Positions 3 to 27,807 of a DNA stretch of 27,807 nucleotides are shown here, piece by piece. The notes beneath the pieces were generated by a model. That model was not told the DNA's origin, did no database searches, and worked only from the letters and a program-made list of their open reading frames with translations. Positions within the stretch are counted from its first letter, which is position 1. The number at the start of each line of letters is the position of its first letter. Source of the DNA: a virus (taxonomy: Duplodnaviria; Caudoviricetes); the IMG/VR virus record IMGVR_UViG_3300036779_000039, positions 1-27,807 of that record; one strand, 5' to 3'. The position numbers and the translations under genes were made by a program.

Positions 3-3000
3 GGTGTCGCCCGCGATCCTGACCACTGCATCGCGTAGCTTGGCCACCATCGGGCGGAGCGCCTTGGGGTAGGCGTTCAAGTCGAAGTGCCTCTCGATGA
101 TTGCCCTCGCCGTGGTGGTGCCTCGCACCGGCAGATTAACCATCTCACTGCCGTGCTTGTACTTGATGGTGCGCGGTTCTTGCTCGGGTTCACCCCATTT
201 GTTTCTGGCTGGGGCTTCGTCCTCCAGCACGTCGCTGCGTGTATCTTTATCACTCTTAGGAGTGATGGTGCGGCGCTTCAACGTGACGGTTTCGACAGGG
301 CGCTTAAACTCAGCCGCCGCCTTGGGAACCTCGCGCTCTTCCTCGTCTTCCTCACGCTCAGCTTTGGGCGCTTCCCGTTCGCGCGGAGCTTCCTGCGCTC
401 TGGCTTCCTGCTCCGCCAGTTTCGCGCGGGCGCGCTCGCTCGCCTCCTGCGCCCGGCGCTCGTTCTCGGTGAGCTTTCTTTCTTCGCCCGGCTCCTTGGC
501 GACCTTCTCCGCTTCGATGTTCTCTTTGGCTTGCTCCAGTGCTTCGACGTGCTTTTGCTCAATGTCGCCAAGCCCGCCCTCGGTTTCCTTCGCCGCCGCT
601 GAGCCCTCGATGTCCTCGACGGCTTTCTCTTTCGCTTCGCCCTTCGCCGCAGCGAACTCTTTCCCTTGGGCTCGGCGCTCTTTCAGCACGTCGGCCTTTG
701 CCGCTTCGCCCTTGAGGAGTTCCTTCTCGCGCTCCAAGAACCTTTTGAAGTCAGAAGTTTTCGGAACTTTCAAGTCAGCAAGGCGTTTAGCTTCGTGAAG
801 TAACACCGCACTCGCAGAGTGAGCCAACTCCGGATCTTTGCGGTCCCGAAGTTTGTCCATAAATTTAAAACCACGCGGGTCAGCCGTGGCCTGCATGACC
901 ATCTTCTTAACGCGATCCAACACTTGGGTGCGAGCGCCTGCGCCGCCCGATCCCCTTGCCGGGTCAGGCGCTTTCTCGTCGCCATCGCGAGGAAGATTAT
1001 TCCGCACCACGTCGTCGGCGACCGCGTTGGACGCCCGCATCGCGGCTTTGTCAGCTTCGCTTTTCTTGCCGGGTTGTTGTTGCTCGGGCTCTTTTGTTTC
1101 CGTCTTCACCCGCCCCGATTTGGTGCGCGACACTTCGGCGACTTGCGCGACGGCTTTGTCTTGCGCCACACGCTGGGCTTCTTGGGCGGCGCGCTCTTCC
1201 TCGGTGTCAGCGCGAAGGGTTCTGCGCTGGCGTTGTTGCTCGGCGGCGGCTTCCAACTCGGGCGTCCACGCGGTGCGCCCGGCAGTGAGATCGACTTTTT
1301 CAGTGGTCGGTGCGTTGTTCTCCACGGAGTTTTGTATCTCGTGGGCGCGCTCGTACAACCCCGTGGAGGGATGGCCGTTGGCCCGCATGTCGTCCACTAT
1401 CGCCTGCCGGGCGTCAGGAGCAAGTTTACTAAACTCGCCCATCTTGAGTGGCGCAGGGGGCGGCGCAGGAGCCTCTACAACCTGTGATTGTACAGGAGGG
1501 GTTTGTTCTGCTGTGGGTTGTGCAAACTCTCCGCGCTCGGCGGCGTCCATCTCGGCCTTGCGCGCCGCAATGTCCGCCTGCACCTTAGCGAGGTCAGGGG
1601 CGGCTTCCGCCGCAGCCGCTGGCGCTGCCGTCTCAGGCGGGCGTTCCGGGGCTGCGGCGGGGCTTCCTGCCACGGAGGGAGTGTCGGTGGCCTTGGGGCC
1701 GACGATCTGGTCGAGGGTGCCGTCCTTGGCGGCTTTGTCGATTGCGCCCTTGGTGATCTTGTAGTCGCCAACCTGCTTACGGTACTGGACGATCCGCCCG
1801 TCGTCCAGCGCCGTCTGCCCGAAATTGCCCTTTTTCTCAGTGATCTCAATGGGTTGCATGCCCAACGGGTAGACCATGGCGGCGCGCGGGTTCTCGGGAT
1901 CAAGCAGCGCGGCGTGTTCCGTCTGGGCGCGGGCGATGTCGTCCGCTGATGGCGGAGCAGGCGTGGCCGCTGGCTGGGTTTTGGGGGGTGGCTGGGGGGG
2001 TGGTGGCGGCTGGGTTGTATCGCCGGCTGGCGGGGCCTCTGCGGCCCTCTGTGCAGGGGGTGCAGTGGTTGTAGCAACTCCCGGTTGTTGATCTACAGGT
2101 TGATCTTGTGTTTTAACTCCCGGAGTGATGGGTTTGCCCGCCAGCGCGGCGTCTTGAGCGGGGTCCACTTTGGCCGCTGGCTGAGCGGGGCCGGTGCCTC
2201 CTGTACTCGTAGCAGAAGTCGAGGCGCGCGGCTTCGCCTCGGTCACTTCTTGCTCGGGCGTGCGTCGTCCGACAGTGCTCTCGCCGGGCGTTTGGGTATG
2301 GGCTTGGTTGGCGGGGAGATCCTCGGCTACCGAAGGCGGCTTTTCCCGTGCGGGTGCGCCGTGCGCGCCGTGCCACAACCCAAAGGGCGCGCCGAACTCG
2401 GCTTGCTCTACGCCTTGGCTGACGATGGCGCTGGGATCGTAGTCTTTGCGTGCGCCACCCCTAATTTCTTCGCGCTCAGTGAGCGCTTCTTGGCCTACCG
2501 CCTGACCGCCGAATATGCCCCCCGTGATGCCGCCGCTTAATATTCGGCTCACTATGGGGCCAGTGGCGATCTTGCCAGCGATTGCGCCCCCCGGAATAAC
2601 GCCAGCGAGGAACCCTCCCGCCATCACTGCGTCCAGCGTCTCAGGGGTAGGCGTGATCCCTTGCTCGACCAGCCGGTTGTACGCCTCGCCGCGCGACATG
2701 CCAGCCATCACCGCGCCCACTCCGGCAGGTCCAGCCGCCGCACCTGCGCCGACCAGCGCGCCCATGCCCGGTGCTTGCCCTGCCGCCCACACCAACGGGC
2801 GACTGATCCCGGCTTCGCTCACTCCGGGAGTGATCTGCGCCTGTTCGCCCTGCGCTGCTTTCTCTTGAGCTTGGGTGCGCGCCTCCCACTCGGCTTGTTT
2901 CACCGGATCGGACTGAAAACTGGCGATGGCCCCGGTGGTTTGCGCTATCGCGCCACGCACCGCGCCCGCGCCTGAGTGATAAACGTCGCTCCATGTCGCC

Positions 3001-3197
3001 GAGGGCGTCGGCAGGCCAGCCGTGCCCGACCACTTGCTCGGCTCCATCGCGGCAGGAGAACCAAAATAATCGATATCGGGGGTTGCGTCACTCTCAGAGT
3101 GAACGCTGGGAGCAACACTGGGAGCAACACTAGGGGGAGGGAGCGCAGGAGGAGGCTGCGCCCCGCCGAAATAATCAATGTCCGGATCGTCGGCCAT
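3..3197 (-). CDS. Large internal virion/ejection protein, 3' end beyond the window (>1060 aa); absent from the ORF track
   Basis: ATG at 3197 lies 9 nt after the stop of the 1884-aa gene. My manual translation (MADDPDIDYFGGAQPPPALPPP...AKLRDAVVRIAGDT) stays open to the window edge. It has a Gly/Ala-rich hydrophobic segment, a Pro-rich linker and a Glu/Lys/Ala coiled-coil region. Function is inferred from position after the other internal virion genes. Confidence 0.8.
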   Translation of the reverse strand, partial: MADDPDIDYFGGAQPPPALPPPSVAPSVAPSVHSESDATPDIDYFGSPAAMEPSKWSGTAGLPTPSATWSDVYHSGAGAVRGAIAQTTGAIASFQSDPVKQAEWEARTQAQEKAAQGEQAQITPGVSEAGISRPLVWAAGQAPGMGALVGAGAAAGPAGVGAVMAGMSRGEAYNRLVEQGITPTPETLDAVMAGGFLAGVIPGGAIAGKIATGPIVSRILSGGITGGIFGGQAVGQEALTEREEIRGGARKDYDPSAIVSQGVEQAEFGAPFGLWHGAHGAPAREKPPSVAEDLPANQAHTQTPGESTVGRRTPEQEVTEAKPRASTSATSTGGTGPAQPAAKVDPAQDAALAGKPITPGVKTQDQPVDQQPGVATTTAPPAQRAAEAPPAGDTTQPPPPPQPPPKTQPAATPAPPSADDIARAQTEHAALLDPENPRAAMVYPLGMQPIEITEKKGNFGQTALDDGRIVQYRKQVGDYKITKGAIDKAAKDGTLDQIVGPKATDTPSVAGSPAAAPERPPETAAPAAAAEAAPDLAKVQADIAARKAEMDAAERGEFAQPTAEQTPPVQSQVVEAPAPPPAPLKMGEFSKLAPDARQAIVDDMRANGHPSTGLYERAHEIQNSVENNAPTTEKVDLTAGRTAWTPELEAAAEQQRQRRTLRADTEEERAAQEAQRVAQDKAVAQVAEVSRTKSGRVKTETKEPEQQQPGKKSEADKAAMRASNAVADDVVRNNLPRDGDEKAPDPARGSGGAGARTQVLDRVKKMVMQATADPRGFKFMDKLRDRKDPELAHSASAVLLHEAKRLADLKVPKTSDFKRFLEREKELLKGEAAKADVLKERRAQGKEFAAAKGEAKEKAVEDIEGSAAAKETEGGLGDIEQKHVEALEQAKENIEAEKVAKEPGEERKLTENERRAQEASERARAKLAEQEARAQEAPREREAPKAEREEDEEEREVPKAAAEFKRPVETVTLKRRTITPKSDKDTRSDVLEDEAPARNKWGEPEQEPRTIKYKHGSEMVNLPVRGTTTARAIIERHFDLNAYPKALRPMVAKLRDAVVRIAGDT

Positions 3198-3206: not shown

Positions 3207-6200
3207 CTAGGGCGCTGGAGCGATTGCAGGGTGAGTGCGCTTATACCATCCCGGCCCGCCAACATCCTGCGGCGTCGTTGTAGGTACGCTGGAAGCGCGC
3301 ACCGTCGAGGGCCGCATCTCAGGAGTAGGCGCGTTGGCGATGGCGGCTTTCGTTTCGGCGGCGTAGGCGTTCTTGGTATTGAGCGCCTTGAGGTTCTGGT
3401 ACATCGGCTCCGGCACCGAGAAAGTGCTTGCGTAACCGTTGTCGTCCCTCACCGTGACGTTGCGCACGCCAGTACGTCTATCGAGCACCCCCGCCCCCGG
3501 CTTGCCGCTAGCGAACAGCATGACGCCGCGCGCCACGTCCTCTTTTCTCGTTAGGGGTGAGTTCATGAACCCGGCGTGCCACGCCTCCTGCAACATCTGT
3601 TGGGTGCCGGGGTCGAACCCAGCCGCCACCAGCGCCGTCCCGGCTTGGTCGCCAGTTAGATCGGGTTGCTTGGCGGCATCCCGCAGGAAAGATTGCGCCA
3701 GCGCCACACGCGGGTCTACCGTGCCCAGTTCATCGAGCGCTTCCTTGGGATTGCGCGTCTCAGCCCGCTTGAGCTTGTCGGTGTAGTCGTCAAGGGTTTC
3801 CTTGTCGGTCACCCCCTGTTGTTCTTGGCGCTTGTGTTCCTCGACTTCGTTGCGTTGCCGTAGAGCCGCCGCAGCGATTTCATTCTGGCTGCGCGTCCCC
3901 GCCGCCGTATCGCTGTGCGTTTGTACCTGCGCCGCGCGCCGCGAGGCAATGTCGGTAGCGATATCTTTTTGCATGCCCGAGATCATCGTGGTCATCGCTT
4001 GGGTGTTTCGTGTCTCCGCGTCGGTATATCGCTTCCATCGTTCGTTGTACGCCGCTTGCACCTGCGGCGCGTAACTCTTGAGAGTGACCTGATCGATCAC
4101 CTCGGGCTTGTGCAGGGGACGCCCGCCCTCAATGGGGCGGCCATCGCTAGTGAAAAATAGCGGTCTGACTTGCGCGGGCACGCTCTGGTAGGCGACGTTA
4201 TGCTCAAGATCCACGTCTTGATCTTGCGGCGTACGTACGTCCGCTGCCGTAGCAGTGCCCGTGGGTGCGGGCGGTATGCCATGCAGGCCCGCGCCGGGTA
4301 TCGGCGGCGCGTTGCTGTCCGCCGTCGTGGTATCGGGCGACTTAGCGGGAGATGGCGCTGTCCCCTCCGGTCCTTGCGGTTGAGTGCTGATCGGGATCGC
4401 CCCGCCAGTCGGCCCCGGCAGCGCGCCGGGCGGCGTAACCGGCGCAGTGGGCGGCGCAGTGTCAGGCTCGTCGTATTCTGGGCCGAACCCAGCAATCGCT
4501 TTGTTGGCGTCGTCCTGCGCTTTTTGGTCGGCTGCGGTCTTCTGCCGGGCGGTCACGCTGGCGCTACGCTGTTTCGCCATACGGGCGAAGCCGCTGTCGT
4601 ATTTGGCGGCTTGATCCTCGTAGGAAGTCCACTGGGTCGAGCCGTTGCGCATCCCCTCTAGATGACCCAACAGAGCATAGGGAGCGGCGATCTGTTGCCA
4701 CATCTGCCGCCCGTTGAGGTCACTGCCATCGATCTTAACGTTGCCATCCGGCAAGAGGGTCGCGTGGATGTTGCGCCCATCGGTCAGCGCATCAGCCGCT
4801 TGGTTGATCTCGTCCACCGCTTCCTTGGTATGGCCGTCATACAACAGTTTGGCGGCAGCTTCGGAATGTTCCTGCGACGCAAGCTGATCGTAGTGCAGGA
4901 TGCTCGCCATCATCTTGTTGGCGTCTTCGACCCGGCCTTGGCCGACCAACGTTTTATAGGCGAACTCCATTCCGGCCATATGCCTGAAAGTTGGAGCCAA
5001 CTCATGCGTCGGATCGGCCATATCGTCAATCTGTTCGCGCTGGTTCTGATCCATTTTCGGCGTGCCGTCAGGCAGATTGCCCTGCACAAAGTTCTGTCGC
5101 CCGGTTTGTGTCTGCGGATCTTGCGCAATCGCCCCCGGCAGGGTGCCCGCTTGCGCCGGAGTGCCAAGCCCGAGATGCTCGCCCAACCAGTGCAACCCCC
5201 CAGTCAGCGCGGCAATGAACCCGCGCGACGGGTTGCCATCGTCGTCCTTGATCTGCGCCGTGTTTGGCGGCAGGCCGGGCGGTGGCCCACTCTGCACCGA
5301 AGCGCCTCCGCCACCTCCACCCCCTCCACCACCCTGTGTTGGTTGTGCCCCAGTGTCCTCGCCGTAATAACCAGTGAAATCCGGCAGGCCCCCCTCTTGC
5401 CTGACCGGCGCTGGCGCTCCTCCGGGGGGCTGACCACTGTAAAAGAGCGCGTCGTCACTATGATCCTCACCTCCGCTATCCATCATGTCGGTCATTTGCA
5501 TTTGCTGCACGTCGGCGTCATCGACGCCGCCGCCATCGGCGAACCGCACCACGCCCCCCTTCAGCATGGGAAGCGAAGGGATCGCGCCAGCGACGTAAGT
5601 TGGGGCGCTGGTCGCCGACACGCCCTTGCCTACGGGTGCGCCCGCGCCCGCATAGGTCGCCGGATTGAAATAAATCGGCGGGATCTGCTGCTGCCCCCCA
5701 CCACTAGAAAGACCGGGCGGCATCCCGGCAATGGAGGGACTAACCCCGCCGCCGTCGTCGTATCTCATCCGTCTCGTCACTCTGGGAGTGATTGGGCCAC
5801 CCTTGCGCGAGCCGGAGATCGTGTTGTTCTGGGTTTGCAGCGTGTCGTCGGTGCCTACGCTGTAGTTGGTGCCGCCCGTGCTTGACGTATTGGTGAACCC
5901 TGCGCCAGTCGTCGCGTCCACGTTCGGGTCATAGCTCTTGGCAGTGACGGTGTTGGGCACCCCCGGCGTGCCAGTCGTTGTCGTGCTGGTCGGATCGATG
6001 GTCGTAGTGTTCACCTGCGGCGCGGTGATGTTGCTCACTGAGGGGGCTGGCTCGTTCAGGGGCGTGGGCGCGCTCGGCGCAGTCGGCCAGATGGCGCTCG
6101 GCATCGCCGTCATCTGGTTCCAGTATTGCGACGTGTCCACCGGCCCGGTCGGGCTCTGCCCGCCGCCGCCCCAGTAAGCCGCGTCCTGCTGCGCCGCTGT

Positions 6201-8861
6201 ATATTCCTGCCCCAGCAAACCTTGAGTGGTGTTCGCCCACGCTTGCTGATTGGGCGCGAGCGCGCTATAGGGCGTGCTTCCGGCCCAGCCGCCTTGCAAC
6301 GTCGGGCCGATATAGTTCGGGCTATCCATATACGCCATGCCGCCCGCCGCGAACTTCATCGTCGGGCGCGAGGGGATACCGCCGCCACGCGCGAAACGTT
6401 GGATGGGTCCGCCCTTGCGCGAGCCGGAAATAATGTTGTTCTTGCTTTGCAGCGTGTCGTCGGTCCCTACGCTGTAGTTCGTCCCTCCTGTGCTGGCAGT
6501 GTTGGCGAACCCAGCCCCGGTGGTGGCGTCCACGTTCGGATCGTAACTCTTGGCGGTGACCGTGTTCGCCACGCCGGGCGTGCCGGTGGTCGTGGTCGAG
6601 GTCGGATCAGTGACCGTCGTGCTGGCGGGATAATTGGTGATGTTCTGCACCGATGGCGGATTGATCACGGGTGCGGGCGTCGGCGCTGCGGCAGCAGGCG
6701 CAGGGGCGGCGGCAGGGGTAGAGCTAGGGTATGCGCCAACAGCACTAAACACCGCGTTTTGCTCAGACGACGGCATGCTGTAGCCTTGCGCAAGCGCAGT
6801 GCTGGCGTTCTGCCACCATTGCTGTTGCGCGGGCGTCATTGACGCCCAATTCGGATTGTTCGGCCCGCCGCCCCCCGGAGCGTCGGCGTTGATCTCATTC
6901 CTAAGAGCGACATATCCGGGGGATGCGCCAGCCCCAGTAAACGTCGGCGCAGAGGCTTGCGGTGCGGGATCGACGCCGGAACCGCCCCCATAGAACGCTG
7001 TTACCGGCTTCGATGGGATTGCCCCGCCACCCGCAAACCTCTGAATGGGTCCGCCCTTGCGTGACCCCATGATCTGCGCCCCCAGCGTAGCGTCATCCAT
7101 GTTCGCAGAGCCAACATCGAAACTTTGATCCTGCGGACGCATGGGTGCAGGCGTCGGCGCGACGTTGACGGCTGGCGCTCTCTGGGAGAGTGGCGGGTTC
7201 GGCCCCCACAAGTGAGAGAGATCAAGCGCTGTCGATACGGGCGGTCCACCGCCGCCCCGCCCACTCGGGTCATTAGCGGGCGCATTGGGACGATAGTCCA
7301 GAGTGGTGAAGCGCGGGTCTTGGCTCACTCTGGGAGTAACCGGCGCGGCTGTCGCTTTGGGTGGAATAGCCGACACCGGCTGAGCGGCTGGCGCAGGCTT
7401 GTCGGCGGCGCTTGGCGCTGGCGTTCCAGTCGGGGCCTCCAAAACATTTCCAGCCCCACCGCCAATAGGCGGCTTTGTTGGTACTAGCGAGCCTGCCAAT
7501 TCCGGCCCGCGCTCTCGCCCTTGCACCGGAGGCAGAGGCGGTTGATCGCCCTCTACCCACGGACGTGCATCCGCCAGTTCCGGTCCACGCTCGCGTCCTT
7601 GCACCGGAGGCAGGGGCGGCTGATCGCTTTCCTGCCACGGACGCCCTGTAGTCGAGCCAGCCAGTTCCGGCCCTTGCTCGCGTCCCTGTACCGGGGGCAG
7701 AGGCGGCTGGTCACCCTCTTGCCATTGACGCGCCCCAGCCAGTTCCGGCCCGCGCTCGCGTCCTTGCACCAGAGGCAGAGGCGGTTGATCGCCCTCTTGC
7801 CATGGGTGCGCCCCTGCCTGTTCCGGCCCACGCTCGATATATCTGTTTCTCGCCGCATCACGAGAAATCTGATTAACTTGTTCTTGCGCTACCCCCGGAT
7901 GCAGAGTATCTTCCGCCGCGACTGACGGCACGGGGGGAATAGCACTGATCGGCGGTCGAACGTCTTTTGGAATTTTCGAGCCGGGAGGCGGCGGGGGAGC
8001 CGCCTCGGGATGCAGTCTGAGAAATTCCCGCAGCCCCGCGTCGTCGTCCATCGACGCGGTTTGCACCTCACCCTTAGTATCGTCGGCCTGCGAGGTCGTA
8101 ACAGGCTTGTCAACGATCTTCCCAGTCGCGTCGGTCGGGTATCGCACCCCTTTCACGGTGACGTATGGCCCCCCGGCAGGAGACATCTCTGTCTTGCCGG
8201 TAGTGACTTTCCCAGTTCCGGCCCCAGTCTCGGTCTTTGGCGCTGCCGCCGTCTCGGTCGGTTTTGCCGCCGCCTTGGCGGCGGCATAGAAGCGCATCCC
8301 ATTGTTGCCGGGGGTGAAGTTCTTCGATGACGGGTCGGTTGACCACGCGCCCCAACCTTGTTGTTTGTAAATTTTATAGGCGGCGTCGAATGCGCCTTGT
8401 GGATCGCGAGCGCTGTTCGCTAGCTCTCTCCCATTCACAGGGTTGATTTGCGTCAGGCCAATCTCGCCAGCCTTGCCGACCGCGCCGGGATTGCCGCCGC
8501 TCTCGGCTTGCGCCAACGCCGCCATGTGCACCGCGTCGTCGCCCTGAAACCCAGCCTTATGGGCCATATCGACCATTTCGGCAAGGGAGACTTTACCCTC
8601 TTTGGGCGTCTCTTGGTTCACATCGCCGCCGCCCCCACCATATCGCCGTTCGCCCTCCTCGATCATACCCGGAATATCAGCGCCCTTGCCCATCCCCCGA
8701 CCGCGATACCAAGCCGCTTTCGCCTCGTCCAGATCGTCCTGCGTCTTCATGTGCGCAGAACGGGCCTGATAATAGTCCGACATCATCTTCATCTTCATCA
8801 CGGCGAGAAGACTGTCGATGAAGCCCTTGCCGAACGCGCCGTAATGCTTGCCCATTGCCAT
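3207..8861 (-). CDS. Internal virion/ejection protein with N-terminal lytic transglycosylase (SLT/lysozyme-like) domain and internal repeats
   Basis: 1884-aa ORF. MAALAQAESGGNPGAVG...GLTQIN...DPQGAFDAAYKIYKQQGWGAWST matches SLT motifs (catalytic E-S, GLxQ, GWxxW). The remainder is Pro/Gly/Thr-rich with repeats. Confidence 0.8.
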   Translation of the reverse strand: MAMGKHYGAFGKGFIDSLLAVMKMKMMSDYYQARSAHMKTQDDLDEAKAAWYRGRGMGKGADIPGMIEEGERRYGGGGGDVNQETPKEGKVSLAEMVDMAHKAGFQGDDAVHMAALAQAESGGNPGAVGKAGEIGLTQINPVNGRELANSARDPQGAFDAAYKIYKQQGWGAWSTDPSSKNFTPGNNGMRFYAAAKAAAKPTETAAAPKTETGAGTGKVTTGKTEMSPAGGPYVTVKGVRYPTDATGKIVDKPVTTSQADDTKGEVQTASMDDDAGLREFLRLHPEAAPPPPPGSKIPKDVRPPISAIPPVPSVAAEDTLHPGVAQEQVNQISRDAARNRYIERGPEQAGAHPWQEGDQPPLPLVQGRERGPELAGARQWQEGDQPPLPPVQGREQGPELAGSTTGRPWQESDQPPLPPVQGRERGPELADARPWVEGDQPPLPPVQGRERGPELAGSLVPTKPPIGGGAGNVLEAPTGTPAPSAADKPAPAAQPVSAIPPKATAAPVTPRVSQDPRFTTLDYRPNAPANDPSGRGGGGPPVSTALDLSHLWGPNPPLSQRAPAVNVAPTPAPMRPQDQSFDVGSANMDDATLGAQIMGSRKGGPIQRFAGGGAIPSKPVTAFYGGGSGVDPAPQASAPTFTGAGASPGYVALRNEINADAPGGGGPNNPNWASMTPAQQQWWQNASTALAQGYSMPSSEQNAVFSAVGAYPSSTPAAAPAPAAAAPTPAPVINPPSVQNITNYPASTTVTDPTSTTTTGTPGVANTVTAKSYDPNVDATTGAGFANTASTGGTNYSVGTDDTLQSKNNIISGSRKGGPIQRFARGGGIPSRPTMKFAAGGMAYMDSPNYIGPTLQGGWAGSTPYSALAPNQQAWANTTQGLLGQEYTAAQQDAAYWGGGGQSPTGPVDTSQYWNQMTAMPSAIWPTAPSAPTPLNEPAPSVSNITAPQVNTTTIDPTSTTTTGTPGVPNTVTAKSYDPNVDATTGAGFTNTSSTGGTNYSVGTDDTLQTQNNTISGSRKGGPITPRVTRRMRYDDGGGVSPSIAGMPPGLSSGGGQQQIPPIYFNPATYAGAGAPVGKGVSATSAPTYVAGAIPSLPMLKGGVVRFADGGGVDDADVQQMQMTDMMDSGGEDHSDDALFYSGQPPGGAPAPVRQEGGLPDFTGYYGEDTGAQPTQGGGGGGGGGGASVQSGPPPGLPPNTAQIKDDDGNPSRGFIAALTGGLHWLGEHLGLGTPAQAGTLPGAIAQDPQTQTGRQNFVQGNLPDGTPKMDQNQREQIDDMADPTHELAPTFRHMAGMEFAYKTLVGQGRVEDANKMMASILHYDQLASQEHSEAAAKLLYDGHTKEAVDEINQAADALTDGRNIHATLLPDGNVKIDGSDLNGRQMWQQIAAPYALLGHLEGMRNGSTQWTSYEDQAAKYDSGFARMAKQRSASVTARQKTAADQKAQDDANKAIAGFGPEYDEPDTAPPTAPVTPPGALPGPTGGAIPISTQPQGPEGTAPSPAKSPDTTTADSNAPPIPGAGLHGIPPAPTGTATAADVRTPQDQDVDLEHNVAYQSVPAQVRPLFFTSDGRPIEGGRPLHKPEVIDQVTLKSYAPQVQAAYNERWKRYTDAETRNTQAMTTMISGMQKDIATDIASRRAAQVQTHSDTAAGTRSQNEIAAAALRQRNEVEEHKRQEQQGVTDKETLDDYTDKLKRAETRNPKEALDELGTVDPRVALAQSFLRDAAKQPDLTGDQAGTALVAAGFDPGTQQMLQEAWHAGFMNSPLTRKEDVARGVMLFASGKPGAGVLDRRTGVRNVTVRDDNGYASTFSVPEPMYQNLKALNTKNAYAAETKAAIANAPTPEMRPSTVRASSVPTTTPQDVGGPGWYKRTHPAIAPAP
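5790..6660 (-). repeat. Intragenic duplication of ~85 aa (copies at ~6402-6660 and ~5790-6048)
   Basis: DPTSTTTTGTPGV(A/P)NTVTAKSYDPNVDATTGAGF(A/T)NT(A/S)STGGTNYSVGTDDTLQ...SGSRKGGPI occurs twice, with mostly synonymous DNA differences. Confidence 0.9.
7490..7835 (-). repeat. Coding tandem repeat, ~4.3 units of 26-29 aa
   Basis: E(R/Q)GPE(L/Q)AG..PWQEGDQPPLPPVQGR is repeated in the translation and is visible in the DNA. Confidence 0.9.
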
Positions 8862-8867: not shown

Positions 8868-8882
8868 TCACTCTCAGAGTTA
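8868..8882. promoter_or_regulatory. Intergenic copy of the palindrome, overlapping a TAA stop and the next SD region
   Basis: TCACTCTCAGAGTTA between the genes at 8880 and 8861. Confidence 0.6.
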
Positions 8883-13508: not shown

Positions 13509-13895
13509 TTACTCCTCTTCACTCTCAGAGTTAACTGGCGCAGAGTGAGCACGACGCTGAAGGTGGGCGATAGCCTTCCTGCCAGCGTCCTGCTCAGCCT
13601 TCTTGCGTTGCTCGTTCTCCGTCAGCGCCTTTCGTCCCGCTTCAAGTTCGCCAACCGTCGTCTCGCTCAAATGGTCCTCCGGTGGAGACGACATCTCCGT
13701 CACCATATTCGGTTTTGGCGGGATGCCATGAATATTGAGTTGCAACTGCTCGGGCTTCTTAGGCTCAGCAGGAGGAGACGAAGTTGAAGGCGCAGGCGGA
13801 GATGCGCCGTGCAGCGGGTTAGGCTTAGCGGGTGTGGGTGCGGGTGGTGGTGCGGGTGGTGGTGACTTTGGAGTTGGGTTTGGGGGGGTCGCCAT
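13509..13895 (-). CDS. Hypothetical Pro-rich protein (likely start ATG 13895)
   Basis: GAGGAAG precedes ATG 13895; fits the operon. Confidence 0.6.
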   Translation of the reverse strand: MATPPNPTPKSPPPAPPPAPTPAKPNPLHGASPPAPSTSSPPAEPKKPEQLQLNIHGIPPKPNMVTEMSSPPEDHLSETTVGELEAGRKALTENEQRKKAEQDAGRKAIAHLQRRAHSAPVNSESEEE

Positions 13896-14105: not shown

Positions 14106-15311
14106 TCAGAAGTCCGCATCCAAAGTCAGGGGACCGGCTGTTGCATTGGCAATGCCTGTCGCAGTAGCGACGGCAGACAACCTTATATGACTAGCTATCG
14201 TTCCGTTGACCGCCATAGAGCTTGCATTGCCGTAAGCCGGAGTCCCGAGTGACACTGTTGTTGGCGCAACGCGCATCGTCACCTGATAAGTGAAATCGCT
14301 GTAAAAAGTCCCGCCAGCCGGGGCGTAGCCAGCGCACAATACATTCGGATAAATCTGAAAATACCGCTGGCAGTCGATCAGATTGTCGCTGTACTTGCGG
14401 AACTCGGGTTCAGCATTCTGCGCCGCCGCGCCGACCATCAGCGCCACGCCGGTGATGTTAAGCGCAGCGTTGAGCGTGGCGACCGGATTGACGACGCCCG
14501 CAGCGGTAAGAAAATTTCCGGCTTGCCACGCATTTGGCGTCGTCGCGACATTGGAGCCATTGCCAAGATTGAAATTAAGAGTGAGTGCAGCGACGTTCGC
14601 CGCCACCGCCCACGTTCCCGCTGTATCACTGGGAATGTTGAGCCGAACTCTCGTCCATACGCTAGCGGGGAGCGCAAAAGTCGCCACATAGGAGCGAGTG
14701 GCCGGAACGTTTCGCAAGGCTGCCGCATAAGTCCCAGCGACTGTTGCTGTCGCCCAGAACTCCAACGTCACCGGCTGTGCATTGGAAGTGCCCCACATCG
14801 CATCGTTGAAATTATAGCCTTCGACGTAGTGCGACCAATAGAGAAGATCAGCCGCCGCCGGGGTGTAAGCCGTCGTCGTCGTCCACGCTAAAAAGTACTG
14901 AAAACCGCCAGTCAACGCTTGCCCCGGTGGTCCTACAGGGGATTGCCCGACGTTGCCCTTACTGGCGATGTTGGTGCCAAATTTCCAGCGGTCGATGATG
15001 TAGCCACCCGTAGTAGCAGGCGCGGCGATGATGGTGCCCCCGTTGCGTTGATCGACGCTCATATCGCCGTTGATGATCCGGTTGCGGTAGCGGATGTTCG
15101 TCGCATCCACATACTCTTTGGTTGATGCGTCAAGCGCGTTCACCGGATCACTCGCGAGAGTGAGTTCGCCGGTCATCGTGCCGCCCGCCAACGGTAAAAA
15201 GCCGCCGCCAGTCGAACCGGAAGTCCATTTGGCTCCGTCCCAGATCCACACCGTGCCATTAGGCGCGTTGAAAATTTGGTTGTTGGTTGGGGAAGTGGGG
15301 AAATCAAGCAT
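14106..15311 (-). CDS. Tail fibre / receptor-binding protein, paralog B
   Basis: MLDFPTSP..APNG.VW.WDGAKW, LPLAGGTMTG..STKEYVD, NRIINGDMSVDQR domain, LIDCQRYF before the C-terminal tip. Confidence 0.75.
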   Translation of the reverse strand: MLDFPTSPTNNQIFNAPNGTVWIWDGAKWTSGSTGGGFLPLAGGTMTGELTLASDPVNALDASTKEYVDATNIRYRNRIINGDMSVDQRNGGTIIAAPATTGGYIIDRWKFGTNIASKGNVGQSPVGPPGQALTGGFQYFLAWTTTTAYTPAAADLLYWSHYVEGYNFNDAMWGTSNAQPVTLEFWATATVAGTYAAALRNVPATRSYVATFALPASVWTRVRLNIPSDTAGTWAVAANVAALTLNFNLGNGSNVATTPNAWQAGNFLTAAGVVNPVATLNAALNITGVALMVGAAAQNAEPEFRKYSDNLIDCQRYFQIYPNVLCAGYAPAGGTFYSDFTYQVTMRVAPTTVSLGTPAYGNASSMAVNGTIASHIRLSAVATATGIANATAGPLTLDADF

Positions 15312-16408: not shown

Positions 16409-17415
16409 CGTACTCTCCTCGCCGACAAGAAGCCGCTCAGAGTGGGGACGGAGCCCGAATAACCCACCCCGGCGTTGAGATAGAGACTGAGCGGCGCAGC
16501 CGTTGAAACCCGGCCCGATACAGTGAGCCCGCTCGATGCACTCGAAACGTTAGCAGCGCCGCCATACGTTGAAGCGAAGGCGTTTGCTCCATTGGGGGCG
16601 GTTGCAAGCACCCCCCAATAGCCTTGGAGGCCAGCAATCGCGGGCATCCGCAGGGTGCCGTAAACATCCCAGTCGCCCGCCGTGAGCGCCAGCGAGCCGA
16701 TATCCTTGCTGGCGTTTGAGGCCGCTGCCGAGGTCGAGGTGAGACTGGCGCTGAGATATTCACCAATCTGTCCCGCCGCCGCGTCCGAGCCGTCAGTCAC
16801 GCCCTTAAGCGCCACCGACCCGTTCATCGTTCCACCAGCCAAAGGCAGATAAGCGCCGCCGCTGAAATTGTTGGCAATCACCCACTGAGAACTGTTCGCG
16901 TCGGTGAACCAGATGTACGTCTGCGCCCCGACGCTATCGAACCACATGTCGCCGGGTTGCGGCGACGACGGCGCATTATCCCCAATGGTGACCGTCGCCG
17001 CGCTACTGGTGTTGTTAGCGACTACCCACTGGGACGTATTGCCGTCGTTGTAGTATACATAAAGCTGCCCGCCAACACTATCCCACCACAGCGATCCCAG
17101 CTGTGGGTTCGTTGGTAAACTATCGCTGACACTGACCGACCCGCCCACCTGCGTCCACTGGGAAGCATTGAACGCCCCGGCAGAGATCGCCTGCGTAGCG
17201 CGATAAAGCTGACCCGCCTGCACTGCGAAATCACCCAGCGCGTAGTTCGCCAATGTCGAAAAATACCTGACTGCGATCAGATCTTGCGCGTTACTCGCAG
17301 AGTTAACCACGCCAAGCTGACCATCCGGCCAGTTGACGTAAAGTTCGCCCGGCAAACGCCCGCTAGGACGATTGCCCGCGACATTGGAACGTAAAGTTTG
17401 AACCCGGTTAGGCAA
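16405..17415 (-). CDS. Tail fibre-like protein (TTG start)
   Basis: GGGAGG SD before TTG. N-terminal QTLRS...PGELYVN, two PxxPQxGxxWxDSVGxQxY...SQWVxANN repeats, YLPLAGGTMNG, GVTDGSDAAAGQIGEY. Confidence 0.75.
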   Translation of the reverse strand: MPNRVQTLRSNVAGNRPSGRLPGELYVNWPDGQLGVVNSASNAQDLIAVRYFSTLANYALGDFAVQAGQLYRATQAISAGAFNASQWTQVGGSVSVSDSLPTNPQLGSLWWDSVGGQLYVYYNDGNTSQWVVANNTSSAATVTIGDNAPSSPQPGDMWFDSVGAQTYIWFTDANSSQWVIANNFSGGAYLPLAGGTMNGSVALKGVTDGSDAAAGQIGEYLSASLTSTSAAASNASKDIGSLALTAGDWDVYGTLRMPAIAGLQGYWGVLATAPNGANAFASTYGGAANVSSASSGLTVSGRVSTAAPLSLYLNAGVGYSGSVPTLSGFLSARRVR

Positions 17416-17427: not shown

Positions 17428-19545
17428 CTAAAAAGTCCCCATATCTATGGTCGAGTTGGTGAGCGTATCGACGTAACCCTTGGTCGCTGCCCCTAAGTTC
17501 GCCGTAGGGGGCGCACTCAGGATCAACAGCCCGGTCATCGTGCCACCGGCAAGAGGCACCATCGTATTGGCGACCCCCTCTGCCGACGCCACGCCCGCGT
17601 CCACGTATTGTTTGGTCGCCGCCCCAAGATTATTCGTTGGGTCAGCGCTAAGAGTTAAAGCTCCGACCAGCGTGCCGCCCAACAGAGGAAGATACGCCGC
17701 TAGCGAAGCCGTCACTTGCGCCGCCGTCTGGTAGCCCGATGGGTTACTCGCCGCATAGCGCGAGGTGTCGCTTGGGTGAACGTGATCCTGCAACGAGAAC
17801 AAGCTGGAAGTTCCAATCGCCGCATTACCGTTCATCAGCGGCAACGCCGTGCCAGCCTTGGTATCGACATAGCTCTTGGTCGCCGCGCCAAGGTTGGTAG
17901 TAGGGACAGCATTGAGGATCAATGCCCCGGTCAGCGTACCGCCCGATAAACGTAAATAGGGCGCAGCCGCCACCGCCGTCGAGATCGACGTATCGACGTA
18001 GTTCTTGGTCGCAGCTTGAGGGGCCGCAGTCGGATCACTCTGGAGAGTGAGCGGCCCAGTCAGCACTCCGCCCGTGATCGCCAGCGCCTGCACCCACGCC
18101 CCATTGGAGCGCCCATAGACGTTGGCGTTGAGCGGCGCATCGCCAATGCCGCCCGTCGAATTGATATCGACATAGTGCTTGGTCGCCGCCTCAAACGGGT
18201 TCACCGGGTCAGCCCCCAGTGTGGTCACGCCATCGACCGTAAGATTGCCGGTGATGGTGCCACCCAAGATCGACAGGAACGGCCCGCCCGCCGTCGCCGT
18301 CGCCACCGTGTTATCGACGTATTGCTTGTCCGCCGCTTGCATCGGCGAGGTCGGATCGGCGCTCAAAATCAGCGCCCCGGTCATCGTTGAGCCCGTGATG
18401 TGCACGAATATCGTCGGGTCGATCTTTACATCGTTAATCTGACCATCGACATATTGCTTGGTCGCCGCTTGAAGTGGTTGAATAGGATCGTACGGCAACG
18501 CCACCTGCGCGCCAAACGTCGTCACCCCATCGATCCAAGCACTGCCGTTAATCGATAACGATCCGATGGCTGACAGATCGCCTTGGGTCACCAGCGAATT
18601 GACAAAACTACCGCCGCTCGCCCACGCACCGCCAGAACGCACGTAGGCGTTGCTGTTGTTCGGCGCATCGCTGGATATCGGGAAAGTTGGAACTTGCGTC
18701 CATCCGGCGTTGTAGCGACCGTATAGCTTATTGTCTGATGGCGCATCATTGCCAATCGCGGCAGGGGGAAGGTACTTCCAGCCGCCATTGTTGCGCACAT
18801 AGTTCGTGCTATCCATCGGCGCGTCGGTCTGGATCGCGTCAGCCATCCAAGTGTTATTGTTGCGCGAATAACTCTGAGAGTTGGATGGCGCGTCAACCTG
18901 AAAGACATTCGCTACCCAGTGACCGTTGTAGCGAGAGTACAAAATACTATCGATGGGCGCTTCGGTGACAAGATCGCTTGTCGTTAAGATGCTCCAAAAG
19001 AACGTCGTCCCGTCCGTCGTCCACTCGGACAGCGTGTCGGTGGTCGGATCGTACCACTGATCCAGCACCCCCGGATTGGCGGGCGCTGCCGCGCCCCAGA
19101 AATAGCGCACCCCAGCGTTGATATACCCCTGCGTGCCGAGCGGAAGCTGATTGTAGATCGCCGGAACTGGATTGACCTGCACACAGTCGCCGCTTGACGA
19201 GGGCACAGCGATGGTGAGCGTGTCGTTACGCGTACCCGTCTGGTAGGTCGCCGTCACCGTGAGGGTGTATTCCTGCCCCGGTATACCCCCTGACACCAAG
19301 AACGTGAGGATCTCACCGAGCGGGCCAATCTGTGGGTAGGAAACAACCAGCGCCGGATTGCTCGATACGTCAACCGCGAAGCTGTAACTCGTCAGAGTGA
19401 TGGCCGGGGTGACGTTGCTGTAGTCCAGCACAATCAGCGTTTGATCGGAAAGCTCTTTGACCAAGGTGCCAAAGTCGTTTAGATCATCAGCATAGAAATA
19501 GGCCGAGTTGGTGTTGATGACGCCGGAAGGAAGCGAGAAGCCCAT
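17428..19545 (-). CDS. Long tail fibre with adaptor-like N-terminus, foldon-like repeats and AATKxYVD repeats (start ATG 19545)
   Basis: Six (D/E)APxxxxxYxRxxxxW motifs and seven AA(T/D)KxYVD motifs, most preceded by GGTxTGxLxL. Confidence 0.75.
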   Translation of the reverse strand: MGFSLPSGVINTNSAYFYADDLNDFGTLVKELSDQTLIVLDYSNVTPAITLTSYSFAVDVSSNPALVVSYPQIGPLGEILTFLVSGGIPGQEYTLTVTATYQTGTRNDTLTIAVPSSSGDCVQVNPVPAIYNQLPLGTQGYINAGVRYFWGAAAPANPGVLDQWYDPTTDTLSEWTTDGTTFFWSILTTSDLVTEAPIDSILYSRYNGHWVANVFQVDAPSNSQSYSRNNNTWMADAIQTDAPMDSTNYVRNNGGWKYLPPAAIGNDAPSDNKLYGRYNAGWTQVPTFPISSDAPNNSNAYVRSGGAWASGGSFVNSLVTQGDLSAIGSLSINGSAWIDGVTTFGAQVALPYDPIQPLQAATKQYVDGQINDVKIDPTIFVHITGSTMTGALILSADPTSPMQAADKQYVDNTVATATAGGPFLSILGGTITGNLTVDGVTTLGADPVNPFEAATKHYVDINSTGGIGDAPLNANVYGRSNGAWVQALAITGGVLTGPLTLQSDPTAAPQAATKNYVDTSISTAVAAAPYLRLSGGTLTGALILNAVPTTNLGAATKSYVDTKAGTALPLMNGNAAIGTSSLFSLQDHVHPSDTSRYAASNPSGYQTAAQVTASLAAYLPLLGGTLVGALTLSADPTNNLGAATKQYVDAGVASAEGVANTMVPLAGGTMTGLLILSAPPTANLGAATKGYVDTLTNSTIDMGTF

Positions 19546-21592: not shown

Positions 21593-21607
21593 TAACTCTA
21601 AGAGTGA
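21593..21607. promoter_or_regulatory. Intergenic copy of the palindrome (opposite orientation)
   Basis: TAACTCTAAGAGTGA between the post-capsid hairpin and ATG 21589. Confidence 0.6.
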
Positions 21608-21683: not shown

Positions 21684-22679
21684 CTACGTCCCGGCGACCT
21701 GCGTCACGATGGCCTGAGCAATGGCTTTGTTGTCGAGCACTTGTCGGCCATAGACCTGTAGCCCACGCAAGATTTGACCGAACGTGCGCTCCGAACGGAT
21801 CGTCTCGACGTTGGTCAACTGCGAAGCGAACGTCAAGCCATGCGCGTGGCCGCCATAGATGACCCACTCGCCCGCCGCCAAACCGGCAGGGGTGCCGAAC
21901 GGCAACAGGTTGGAGGCATAGATGGTGAACCTGTCGATCTGACCGAAGCGCCCATTCCTGAGAATGCTCACCTGATCGCCCGACACGAACACTTCGCGCA
22001 GTTCCGAACGCTTCAGTTGGAAGGTCGCCCAAGTGGGCATCACCACCCAGCGCCCCGTCTCGGGGATGTTTTGTTCGTCCAATGCTTGACCGATCCGCAG
22101 TAGAACATCGATGATCTCGACCTGCCCGGTGCTTGGATTGCGTCCCACGCAGGCAACCGGCGAGCCGGTCACGCCGAGGTTGATGTTGCCGGAGATAACC
22201 CCGGCAGCGGTGCCCATGTTGTAGGGGTTGGCTTGGTTGATCAGGAACAGCAGCACGTCGCTGTCAACCGTCATCTTCATCTGCTCGGACGCGTCGTCCG
22301 CCCAAATGGAAAGATTGTTGATGTCGGATTGCTTCTCGATCACGTCGTCCAAGATCGCGGCGAAATACTTGCCTTGATCGATGGTCAGTTCGACGTTCGA
22401 CCCGGCTGGCCTTTGCAGCGCAAGATCCCCGTTGACCATATAGTTGTTGATGATCAGCGTCGGCTTGGTGCGGATCTTAATCCGGTCGCCGTAGCTTTTG
22501 ATCTCGCCCTCGTAGTCGGTGTTGCTGATCGCCGCCAACACCGTGGCGGCGTAGAACTTTTCGATCAGCTTACCCGACCAGATCTCGGGGATAAAACCAG
22601 CGGCGACGTAATCAGTGGACGTTGAACCGGGCGGGTATATGGGCGGCGTTGTGCCGGAACCGGCAAGGGGTAGAGCCAT
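21684..22679 (-). CDS. Major capsid protein (HK97 fold)
   Basis: FIPEIWSGKLIEKFY...ISNTDYEGEIKSYGDRIKIRT, LTIDQGKYF, LDEQNIPETGRWVV, RGLQVYGRQV; GGAG SD; follows the scaffold gene. Confidence 0.9.
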   Translation of the reverse strand: MALPLAGSGTTPPIYPPGSTSTDYVAAGFIPEIWSGKLIEKFYAATVLAAISNTDYEGEIKSYGDRIKIRTKPTLIINNYMVNGDLALQRPAGSNVELTIDQGKYFAAILDDVIEKQSDINNLSIWADDASEQMKMTVDSDVLLFLINQANPYNMGTAAGVISGNINLGVTGSPVACVGRNPSTGQVEIIDVLLRIGQALDEQNIPETGRWVVMPTWATFQLKRSELREVFVSGDQVSILRNGRFGQIDRFTIYASNLLPFGTPAGLAAGEWVIYGGHAHGLTFASQLTNVETIRSERTFGQILRGLQVYGRQVLDNKAIAQAIVTQVAGT

Positions 22680-22720: not shown

Positions 22721-23914
22721 CTAACGACGGATGATGCGCCCTTCGTTCCCCGCTTGGATCAGCGCCTGCTCAAGAGCAGCCGCCTCTGCCTCACGTCCGG
22801 TGTATTTGCCTGACGTTTTGTCGCGGTAGAACTGGGTGATATCCGACGCTTGATAGAACGGCTTCTCGGGGGGGACAGTCGTTTGCCCAGTCTTGGCTCT
22901 GCCCGGCGCTGCAAATTGCATGAGGTCAACCTGCGGGGTGGGGGCAGGTAACAACCTCTGTGAGGTGTCCGCTCCATTGCCCGGTTGCTGACCCCCGCCG
23001 TTCGCAGGGCTACGCGCAGCCACATCAGATAGGAAGCTCTTAAAGATATCCACAACCTGACCTGTCGTATTCGAGTTGTGGGCAGCGTTCAGAAATTCTC
23101 GTCTTGGGTGGCGTGAGATCGGATCGATCTGATCCAACCATTGGTGAAACAACGGGTGATTATTGACTGCATCCCAGTTGGGCACCTCCTTTTCCAAATC
23201 CTTGTACATCTGCACTCGCGCATCAAATACGACGGTGTTCTGCACCCCGCCGATTTGACGTTTGACCTGTTGAAGCTCGCCATAGAGTTGAGTCAGTATC
23301 GGCTCGTAGACTTCCGCCGCGCGCCGCCCCATCACGTCGATGGTTTCCTCGCCGTACTCCTGAACCTCTTTCGGCGTCACCCTTCGACCCGGAGGAGGAG
23401 GAGCGACGTTGAAGCGCACCCCCGATCCCTCACTCTGAGAGTTAGGCGTCGGCTGGACCTGCGCCATCAGGCGCTGCATGTCTACAATCTGCTGCTGTAA
23501 ACGACGTTTCTCTTCGGTGTCGCGATCATAACGGCCCTTGAGAGAGCGAAACTGATGCTCCCAATCTTCCTGTGTCTGGGGAGTTGGAGGCGTCGGCGCA
23601 GGCGGCGGTTGAGATTGAGTTTGCGACAGACGTGGGTCGCCCGGCTCGGGCGGACGCGGATTGTTCGGATCGAAGTTCGCTGTGACCACGCCATTCGGCG
23701 ATGCTGGCTGGCCCGGCATGCGCACGCCTGATCCAATAGGCTCGTTCGCGCCGCTGGCGTCGTTCGCCGTCTTGGCGGCTTTGGCTTGAGCCGATAATGC
23801 TTCGGCGCGATCCGCTGCGGCCTTGACCGCAGGCGGAACTTTCACGTTCGGATCGGGCGCTCCCCGCTTGGTCGCGCCGCCGACTGCCTCATGCCCTTGA
23901 ACCGCTTCCGCCAT
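22721..23914 (-). CDS. Capsid scaffolding protein
   Basis: Directly precedes the capsid gene. Disordered N-terminus, WEHQFRSLKGRYD coiled coil, FHQWLDQIDP, and C-terminal EGRI. Confidence 0.75.
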   Translation of the reverse strand: MAEAVQGHEAVGGATKRGAPDPNVKVPPAVKAAADRAEALSAQAKAAKTANDASGANEPIGSGVRMPGQPASPNGVVTANFDPNNPRPPEPGDPRLSQTQSQPPPAPTPPTPQTQEDWEHQFRSLKGRYDRDTEEKRRLQQQIVDMQRLMAQVQPTPNSQSEGSGVRFNVAPPPPGRRVTPKEVQEYGEETIDVMGRRAAEVYEPILTQLYGELQQVKRQIGGVQNTVVFDARVQMYKDLEKEVPNWDAVNNHPLFHQWLDQIDPISRHPRREFLNAAHNSNTTGQVVDIFKSFLSDVAARSPANGGGQQPGNGADTSQRLLPAPTPQVDLMQFAAPGRAKTGQTTVPPEKPFYQASDITQFYRDKTSGKYTGREAEAAALEQALIQAGNEGRIIRR

Positions 23915-24439: not shown

Positions 24440-24440
24440 G

Positions 24441-24726: not shown

Positions 24727-24741
24727 TCACTCTCAGAGTTA
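24727..24741. promoter_or_regulatory. Intergenic copy of the palindrome
   Basis: TCACTCTCAGAGTTA between the genes at 24746 and 24719. Confidence 0.6.
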
Positions 24742-25086: not shown

Positions 25087-25110
25087 ATAATTTCGTGCCT
25101 CTAACGATTT

Positions 25111-26249: not shown

Positions 26250-26262
26250 CTCACCTCTTCCG

Positions 26263-26277
26263 TCACTCTGAGAGTTA
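26263..26277. promoter_or_regulatory. Intergenic copy of the palindrome, overlapping the portal TAA stop
   Basis: TCACTCTGAGAGTTA. Confidence 0.6.
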
Positions 26278-27807
26278 AGTGGGTCCGCCTTGGTTCACCA
26301 AGTTTGTCCTTAAACCCGCACTACCTGCGGGTTTAGCTTGGGGAGGCCCAGCTTGCGGAGTCGGCGGGCCAGACGGCGAGGGAGGAGGACCGCCCGGCCC
26401 GCCTTGTGCACCACCGGGCGAAGGAGGTCCGCTGCCACCCGGAGGTCCAGCAACCGGGCCTTGGCCCGGTTGTCCCTGTTGCATCTGCATGGCTTGCATA
26501 GCCTGCTGCTGCTTGTCCTTTTGATCCATCTCGGTATCGGATGGGACGATGTTCTCGCCCGGCATGCCGATCTCGGTGGCGACCGACCGAAGCACCTGCG
26601 CCCGCCCCTTCGGCCCGATGATCCCCATATCGATGGGGTTGGCGGTGATTTGCAGAAACTCAAGCTGCCGCGCGCGTTGGGTTTCGCGTTGCTGAGCGAC
26701 GGCCACGCCCAACACCCGGATCTTCTCTTCGCCCGTCAGCAAGCCGGTCTGGTCGGTCAGCATGACCATATCGAGCAGCCCGTTGATCACTGGCTCGATG
26801 ATATCCCTATCGATGTTCGACGCCACTGTTTGAAGGATCTTGGAAGAGTTCTGCATCAGCATAGAAAGCCCACTGGCGGTTCTTCCCAACCCGCCAGTGG
26901 GAGGCGAACCCGTCATGAATTTCGGGATCGCTGAGTGTTCATCAGCCATACCAGAGAACGCCATATAGACCTGAAGAAGCTCCTGAGAGTTCGACGCGGG
27001 GGAGAAGAACTCGACGGCTTTTTCGGTGTTGTTGCCGAACGGATCAGATTTGACATGCCAGCGCTTCCACGGGTACATCTGCTCGCCGTCTTCACCATCG
27101 GAGAGACGATCATCGTTGATGATCGCCTGCGGGCCAGACGAAATAGAAAGATTGTTAACCATCGCTCTCAAGGTCGCGTTCATCACCGAGGCAATGTCGC
27201 TCAGAAGATCAGGCAGGCCATTGCCGCACGGGTTGCCGGGAACCTTCTCAAAGCTGGTGGTGTAGTATTGGTGGCGCTTGCGTGGGCTAGGAGCCATCTG
27301 CACCTTGATGATGTGCCGCCCGATCAGCCACGCATTGATGAAGTAATCGCGCATCGGGTCTGGCACGAGGGAAGGGTCCATGCCCATCTCTAAACAAAAT
27401 CTACCTTGGGCGTTGCCTTGAAACTCTAAGCAGGCGATCAACCCGGATTGGTTAAATCTTGGATCTTCGCGACTCTCCAGAATAGCTCTCTCGGCGTCCG
27501 TCTGGTCCCAGTTATCCACCAGACCACCACGTCCGTACTCATCAAGGACTGCACGTACTTCGTCAGTGTTGAAGCCGGGGAGATCAAGAAGGTCGTTGAG
27601 TTCAGCGCGGGTAAGACGAGATCGTTGAATGACATTGGCATCCTCGATATTCGCTACGCCGGGCGTCCAATAAATGTCAAACGGCGAAACCCTTTCCCAA
27701 CACATCACCGGCACGTCTACAACCTGCGGACGCGCCACTTGAGGAGCTTTTTTGGGGGCCGCACTCTGAGAGTTAGGGTTGGGAGAGAGCGCGCCACCGG
27801 GAGGATT
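26275..27807 (-). CDS. Portal (head-tail connector) protein, 5' end beyond the window
   Basis: The frame is open to the right edge. ERVSPFDIYW, GNGLPDLLSDI..VMNATLRAMVNNLSISSGPQ, GRTASGLSML, NIDRDIIEP are podoviral portal motifs; Gln/Pro-rich tail. Confidence 0.88.
   Translation of the reverse strand, partial: NPPGGALSPNPNSQSAAPKKAPQVARPQVVDVPVMCWERVSPFDIYWTPGVANIEDANVIQRSRLTRAELNDLLDLPGFNTDEVRAVLDEYGRGGLVDNWDQTDAERAILESREDPRFNQSGLIACLEFQGNAQGRFCLEMGMDPSLVPDPMRDYFINAWLIGRHIIKVQMAPSPRKRHQYYTTSFEKVPGNPCGNGLPDLLSDIASVMNATLRAMVNNLSISSGPQAIINDDRLSDGEDGEQMYPWKRWHVKSDPFGNNTEKAVEFFSPASNSQELLQVYMAFSGMADEHSAIPKFMTGSPPTGGLGRTASGLSMLMQNSSKILQTVASNIDRDIIEPVINGLLDMVMLTDQTGLLTGEEKIRVLGVAVAQQRETQRARQLEFLQITANPIDMGIIGPKGRAQVLRSVATEIGMPGENIVPSDTEMDQKDKQQQAMQAMQMQQGQPGQGPVAGPPGGSGPPSPGGAQGGPGGPPPSPSGPPTPQAGPPQAKPAGSAGLRTNLVNQGGPT

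Follow-up and report, generated by a model that had tools for sequence, protein, structure and literature searches.

Evenly spaced palindromes across a podovirus family and a candidate protein that may read them

What reads a palindrome that recurs through unrelated genes of a phage? The question is raised by IMG/VR record IMGVR_UViG_3300036779_000039, whose entire 27,807 nucleotides (the window) hold a podovirus structural arm in which the genes for portal, capsid, tail fibre, and large internal virion proteins all lie on the minus strand; genomes in this podovirus family are ~60 kb. A sequence-only reading of the window had reported 18 dispersed copies of ACTC-N3-GAGT and proposed multi-site recognition by a dimeric protein. 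We find phage-specific, evenly spaced sites that are under selection as DNA and are not hairpins. The array is real and family-wide and very probably consists of docking sites for a phage-coded protein. We infer a probable reader, the protein family F16, encoded outside the window, and a possible role as a brake on transcription.

An evenly spaced dyad array in the window

Coordinates below include the outer flank bases (15 bp for three-base spacers, N3; 16 bp for four-base spacers, N4), and the residues encoded by in-gene sites are in brackets.

808..822, dyad N3, in the giant virion protein gene (HSAS)
2114..2128, dyad N3, in gene (TPGV)
2819..2833, dyad N3, in gene (TPGV)
3088..3102, dyad N3, in gene (HSES)
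5777..5791, dyad N3, in the 1884-aa gene (TPRV)
7325..7339, dyad N3, in the 1884-aa gene (TPRV)
8868..8882, dyad N3, at a gene junction, overlapping a stop codon
10365..10379, dyad N3, intergenic
11430..11444, dyad N3, in the 763-aa virion gene (TLGV)
13160..13174, dyad N3, in the 763-aa virion gene (NSQS)
13519..13533, dyad N3, in a small gene, near its stop (NSES)
17291..17305, dyad N3, in the tail fibre gene (NSAS)
18869..18883, dyad N3, in the tail fibre gene (NSQS)
21593..21607, dyad N3, intergenic, downstream of the capsid gene
23430..23444, dyad N3, in a likely scaffold gene upstream of the capsid gene (NSQS)
24727..24741, dyad N3, intergenic
26263..26277, dyad N3, at the portal stop codon
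27761..27775, dyad N3, probably in the 5'-cut portal gene (NSQS), frame inferred
250..265, dyad N4, in gene
4072..4087, dyad N4, in gene
15148..15163, dyad N4, in the tail fibre gene
18035..18050, dyad N4, in the tail fibre gene
19385..19400, dyad N4, in the tail fibre gene
6544..6559, degenerate N4-type near-site

All 18 N3 sites were recovered at their reported starts, and their flanks fit the proposed consensus T(C/A)ACTC-N3-GAGT(G/T)A, with the outer T and A both present in 15 of the 18. Their excess over chance also held, as dinucleotide shuffles gave a mean of 0.30 copies (largest 2; 0 of 100 reached 18). Five ACTC-N4-GAGT sites with the same flanks (starts 252, 4074, 15150, 18037, and 19387; 0.26 expected) were absent from the earlier reading. 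All five lie inside genes and within long gaps of the N3 series, and the near-site at 6544 brings the total in the window to about 24. Besides these N4 copies, the sequence-only reading overlooked how evenly the sites are spaced, how their spelling changes across the family, and that a candidate reader exists outside the window.

That reading had placed 13 copies inside genes. Twelve N3 sites lie wholly within called genes and five at gene junctions; the thirteenth in-gene copy (27763) is counted because it reads NSQS in the frame of a portal gene probably cut by the contig end. As claimed, different reading frames are used: in-gene sites fall at two codon offsets, one giving TPGV, TPRV, or TLGV and the other HSAS, HSES, NSQS, NSES, or NSAS. 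Selection at the level of the nucleic acid was borne out as well. Codon-shuffled sequence does not yield similar counts, since window-wide synonymous shuffles gave 0.70 in-gene N3/N4 sites against 17 observed, and 1,000 runs of synonymous codon permutation gave at most 5. Selection for the sites at the protein level was thereby rejected.

Spacing between sites was far more regular than expected. The coefficient of variation was 0.46, compared to 0.95 for random placement (0 of 5,000 as even) and 0.93 for a null that keeps the bias toward gene junctions (0 of 3,000). We also considered a hairpin or cruciform role, as in N4-type promoters or ssi priming sites, and ruled it out because the arms do not covary: across 1,409 sites, arm complementarity was at or below the independent expectation at all six variable positions, with the score threshold for these sites biasing complementarity slightly downward. 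The array thus behaves as a set of double-stranded sites for a symmetric binder. This much of the proposed recognition system is supported, with silencing, parS/matS-like organisation, and packaging as candidate roles.

The sites belong to the phage rather than to its host. In a 3.3-Mb Xanthobacteraceae genome (G035), a relative is integrated in a 239-kb contig (C32) together with a tyrosine integrase; the direct repeats that bound it, at 48217 and 109562, are at least 44 bp long. Inside this prophage lie all 14 of the N5-type sites in that genome and 13 of the 18 N6-type sites, as well as 30 of the 36 relaxed-pattern sites on the contig. The strict 15-mer of the window has 13 copies in the window vs. 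3 matches in 61 Xanthobacteraceae genomes. A motif over-represented in the host, in the manner of HIP1, was therefore rejected for Xanthobacteraceae, a likely host family: the sites are near-absent from its chromosomes and, in G035, confined to the prophage. Because our reversed-pattern control differs in dinucleotide make-up, we make no claim that hosts avoid the word. Nor is the array an assembly artefact, since the cultured relative Rhizobium phage RHph_TM3_14A carries it.

The G035 prophage (C32, 48217-109605; 61 kb) looks complete and encodes two Trans_reg_C winged-helix genes. Its attachment repeats look like a tRNA 3' end. Among 26 proteins scanned from its early region, we found no CI-type helix-turn-helix (HTH) protein, and two winged-helix proteins were present.

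Re-spelled arrays across the phage family

Relatives were found through the major capsid protein of the window. Its identity is 65.7% to the capsid protein of RHph_TM3_14A and of three sister phages, and reaches 93% for IMG/VR contigs. Thirteen of the 15 whole or large records carry 39-99 sites each, compared to at most 0.8 in block shuffles; RHph_TM3_14A has 61, and its own dyad is TTACC-N5/6-GGTAA. The half-site in these 13 records is (G)TWACYY, with 7 or 8 bases separating AC and GT, and it is spelled in several ways, including TWACTC-N3/4, TTACCC-N3, and TTACCT-N4. Spelling and spacer vary even among phages 89-93% identical to the window in capsid. Among 13 further records, 8 are canonical, G025 has a weak array, and G023 and G031 show no dyad.

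The other two of these 13 use other words: G021 has 18 perfect copies of TCACGCCC-N-GGGCGTGA, and G027 has 29 copies of ACTA-N4-TAGT. G014 was at first taken as negative for both F16 and the motif, a view overturned when a broader profile and a broader dyad scan found divergent forms of both, with about 12 GTTRAAC-N3-GTTYAAC sites. In the complete genome G015, a dyad array was looked for and none was found. More distant loci add TTATCCATGGATAA, GTTTAGC-N3-GYTAAAC, TACTAC-N2-GTAGTA, and TCCC-N7-GGGA, and some branches carry 12-22 sites only. A TTTAGC-N3-GYTAAA dyad occurs at L292 (2206-8040) and L162; we take it to resemble the RK2 KorB operator, with a longer spacer. Separately, the F16-less relative G023 has seven copies of an asymmetric TTGTGTTAC word (4179-28283), perhaps serving as a promoter element or as a replacement system.

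The layout of the array is shared across the family. Sites in relatives are spaced 0.6-1.5 kb apart and are under-dispersed in 12 of 12 genomes against a junction-aware null (p ≤ 0.016). Gene junctions are enriched for sites, and density in the non-structural arm is 1.5-3.6 times that in the structural arm in all 15 genomes compared. Individual in-gene positions turn over with divergence while the arrays persist: 38% of site pairs are shared at >60% protein identity, 19% at 45-60%, and 7% at <45%, with a chance level of about 2.5%.

The F16 family and what the array may do

The first gene of substantial size in the early arm is F16 (EVB41_028 in RHph_TM3_14A), which encodes 250-390 aa. The protein is all-helical in structure models (pLDDT 91 and 96), with an acidic variable N-terminus, a core of ~160 aa containing a conserved Q-x-SKLR helix, and a C-terminal helical hairpin. 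When proteins of 17 genomes were clustered, F16 was the sole sizeable family left that occurred in all 14 array-bearing genomes with an early region and in neither G014 nor G015; the divergent G014 copy came from the later, broader profile. Another family that seemed co-distributed with the array, F13, was dropped after weak homologues appeared in G014 and G015. Across 29 records besides the window, 26 have F16, one (G024) lacks its slot, and two (G015 and G023) hold the slot without it. F16 is thus present in 26 of 28 slot-holding records, and the two that lack it show no dyad array.

Several further observations connect F16 to the sites. The Q-x-SKLR helix is altered in G014, G021, and G027, all with re-spelled dyads, and in G031. 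At L288, seven perfect 14-mers begin directly upstream of a divergent F16, and at L292 re-spelled sites flank another; a site follows the F16 stop codon in 13 of 15 genes. Only 1 of 301 genomes of the G035 family has F16, and that one is the prophage. The family is large (836 clusters at 50% identity), and G010 carries a second, short paralogue (1115-1576; 153 aa) consisting of the core only. On this evidence, we consider F16 the probable reader of the dyad, as a predicted binder.

Searches for a known relative of F16 returned little. Neither Pfam nor PHROG gave a family match, and no HTH family matched. Comparison with PDB sequences and with the PDB through Foldseek (full and core models) gave no solved-fold match, which does not in itself make the fold novel. 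A wide VIA structure search peaked at Z 6.9-7.0 to unrelated helical proteins, BFVD held two uncharacterised homologues only, and ParB-HTH comparisons gave weak rows under the bar (TM 0.31-0.41). No spreading or bridging domain appeared in the structure searches. The predicted homodimer scored 0.31, below the mark of 0.42, and was given no weight. Some words cluster in the F16 tree, but close relatives carry the same labels, and residue columns separating ACT-type from ACC-type words numbered 0-11 per gene, singling out no reader.

We tentatively favor a transcription brake as the main role of the array. F16 would be made first after entry and would occupy a site next to its own gene, then others roughly one kilobase apart, with two half-site-reading cores joined loosely enough to accept 3- or 4-base spacers. 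Bound F16 would end transcripts that are stray or too early after at most roughly one gene length, on both strands and in both convergent arms. The genome would thereby be kept quiet, either as a prophage in the few integrase-bearing members, where F16 would act as lysogeny repressor, or in a stalled infection. Replication would then lift the number of sites above the F16 pool, titrating it away and releasing the brake. A role in transcription is supported by the denser non-structural arm, the enrichment at junctions, and a site upstream of the first gene in the branch represented by G040.

A number of observations weigh against F16 as reader or against the brake. In a co-variation test of 23 genomes (the window, G014, G015, G023, G024, G025, and G031 were left out), motif distance correlated with distance in the primase-helicase at rho 0.70 and with F16 at 0.45-0.47, the latter value over the pairs used for the primase-helicase; F16 came 11th of 20 genes. 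G040 (a complete genome), G041, and G043 carry arrays without F16. The first gene of the G040 branch belongs to a different family of helical proteins, and in 11 of 12 non-independent loci a site lies 39-103 bp upstream of it; no homology to F16 was detected (HHalign probability <2%), and L321 of this branch has a near-canonical TACTC-N3-GAGTA dyad. This gene is either a remote F16 or a replacement in the same slot, or else neither family reads the sites. The SKLR helix is altered in G020 although the motif there is canonical; in G031, which has a divergent F16, no dyad was found over 24.8 kb; and G025 has F16 with its weak array only. Flanking sites are not specific to F16, as another gene has a stop-site in 12 of 14, and the core of F16 is just weakly basic (net 0 to +8). 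Sites within late genes of 5-7 kb sit uneasily with a brake, and a DNA coat would account equally well for the even spacing.

Most family members also lack an evident state to silence, because only 3 of 27 records, and 2 of the 17 near-complete ones, have a tyrosine integrase. For the same reason, the stoperator-like silencing put forward by the sequence-only reading is weakened in its simple form of lysogeny and immunity. RHph_TM3_14A (L081, MN988472.1) has a gene annotated “putative integrase” (EVB41_076, 42239-45322); the product matches DUF927 and primase/helicase profiles, PF00589 was looked for in this record and gave no match, and by its profile matches we assign the gene as a DUF927 primase-helicase.

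Four other explanations deserve consideration. The same first-made protein might bind phage DNA as it enters and replicates, either to compact or shield it or to mark it as self against host defences, phage nucleases, or relatives infecting the same cell, with transcription not its main role. Such a coat or self-mark, which we judge somewhat unlikely, is favored by spacing that is even beyond the junction effect, by the 17 of 24 window sites that lie in late structural genes, and by arrays that persist in integrase-less phages and despite the turnover of in-gene positions (38% to 7% shared from the closest to the most distant proteins). It fits poorly with the density bias toward the early arm in 15 of 15 genomes and with the fixed site upstream of the first gene; moreover, 12-22 sites in some branches are too few for a coat, and structure searches identified no spreading or bridging domain. 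Evenness genome-wide, together with the very large internal virion proteins of the family, could also suit sites at which a virion protein or terminase directs packaging, ejection, or nicking. However, distances in terminase, portal, and capsid (0.27-0.45) follow the motif no more closely than F16 does, and G015 has all three genes with no array. Nick and translocation signals are usually polar, whereas these dyads are not, and we give this explanation little credence.

The best correlate in the co-variation test, the conserved DUF927 primase-helicase (partial rho 0.59 given F16), could instead point to loading or priming sites usable on both strands, at an Okazaki-like spacing of 0.6-1.5 kb. 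Yet the correlation extends along the whole protein (0.39-0.73) and peaks in its conserved middle rather than in the C-terminal part, and for this reason it looks like that of a good lineage marker. Given also that G015 and G023 have the primase without an array and that there is no hairpin signal, primase loading appears improbable. Least probable of all, to the point of being very unlikely, is that the phage exploits sites for a host protein, such as a LysR-type T-N11-A box or a CtrA-like box. TTAC-N7-GTAA is compatible with the T-N11-A rule, and avoidance of GANTC together with the hosts of relatives points to Alphaproteobacteria; still, the sites are near-absent from chromosomes of a likely host family, and spelling and spacer differ among phages of nearly the same capsid.

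Returning to F16, a broader picture would be a large soil phage family with its own sequence-addressed chromatin, in which a first-made protein of undescribed helical fold docks on a lineage-specific palindrome every kilobase. There it would silence or shield the genome and let self be distinguished from host and from relatives in the same cell, with reader and word re-spelled together. As a whole, we regard this picture as doubtful.

Neighbouring genes and comparison with known systems

Two structural genes anchor the window within its family:

21684..22679, minus strand, major capsid protein gene (phrog_267, E 2.8e-50)
26275..27738, minus strand, portal gene, probably cut at the contig end (phrog_332, E 3.3e-50; PF23899)

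The window avoids GANTC (8 vs. 59 expected) and CCWGG (1 vs. 62 expected) and does not avoid GATC; these avoidances differ between relatives. Together with the hosts of relatives, GANTC avoidance suggests an alphaproteobacterial host. Other genes also merit mention. A 77-aa gene in the structural arm (25519-25752, minus strand) matches the Acb2/Tad1 hairpin domain (PF24729, E 1e-16) and, going by this match, likely encodes an anti-defence sponge protein; Tad2-like genes occur in relatives G001 and G003. The 1884-aa virion protein (3207-8861, minus strand) has an SLT/lysozyme-like domain at its N-terminus, several internal ERGPE..PW.EGDQPPLP repeats, and a duplicated Thr-rich block. In 16 of 17 genomes an acyltransferase-like gene (10383-10901 in the window, minus strand; phrog_4470) keeps its place within the virion genes, and G003 has a phage gene with a PEP-CTERM motif (21851-22516, minus strand; E 2e-7).

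Palindromic sites scattered through coding DNA and read by dimers are known from RK2 KorB operators, N15 centromere sites, matS/MatP, and SlmA. The density here, about 1 per kb, is far higher. A scan of 126 accessory proteins, almost all of them from 7 genomes, found neither ParA nor ParB, with no whole-record search made. Our literature searches, judged by title or abstract start, found no publication on the motif of this family; the name RHph_TM3_14A gave none, and neither TTAC-N7-GTAA nor TTAC-N8-GTAA appeared among the literature matches listed. The original description of the RHph phages, absent from the search results, or its supplements may mention the repeat.

The nearest description is that of the Cluster O mycobacteriophages. 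In the excerpted account (PMC4351075), Corndog has 34 copies genome-wide, in and between genes, of a 17-bp dyad with invariant 7-bp arms and a fixed 3-base spacer. The Cluster O dyad is there absent from the host, the phages are without integrase, the function is given as unknown, and a dimeric binder is predicted. Similarly, 39-99 dyad copies per genome are found in most relatives here, in and between genes and near-absent from chromosomes of a likely host family. In contrast to what those excerpts give for Corndog, however, our array has another sequence, host phylum, and phage type, its arms are degenerate, its spacer is 3 or 4, and its spacing is measurably even; the word is also re-spelled across the family, and a candidate reader co-occurs.

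The nearest mechanism is that of the Cluster A stoperators (L5, TipsytheTRex). As far as the excerpted account goes (PMC9283540), these are more than 20 genome-wide sites for one phage protein, with a proposed halt of elongation and a specificity that diverges among relatives. They are asymmetric 13-mers oriented with transcription, mostly intergenic, in temperate phages, and are bound by a monomer with HTH and Stoperator domains. The present family likewise exceeds 20 sites genome-wide (39-99). By contrast with that account, the sites here are 15-16-bp dyads, mostly in genes, in mostly integrase-less phages, and F16 has no HTH family match. Judged against these excerpts, the window array belongs to neither the Cluster O nor the Cluster A system.

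Genome-wide dyad arrays in non-temperate phages have been a puzzle since Cluster O, for which the excerpted account identifies no reader. In the present phages, a candidate reader from a large, unannotated protein family accompanies the array. Naturally occurring word variants serve as ready-made controls for specificity, and the array can be tested in a phage cultured on Rhizobium etli. If our reading is true, F16 would represent a new class of phage DNA-binding protein, and the array would give mostly integrase-less phages a way to time or silence their genomes.

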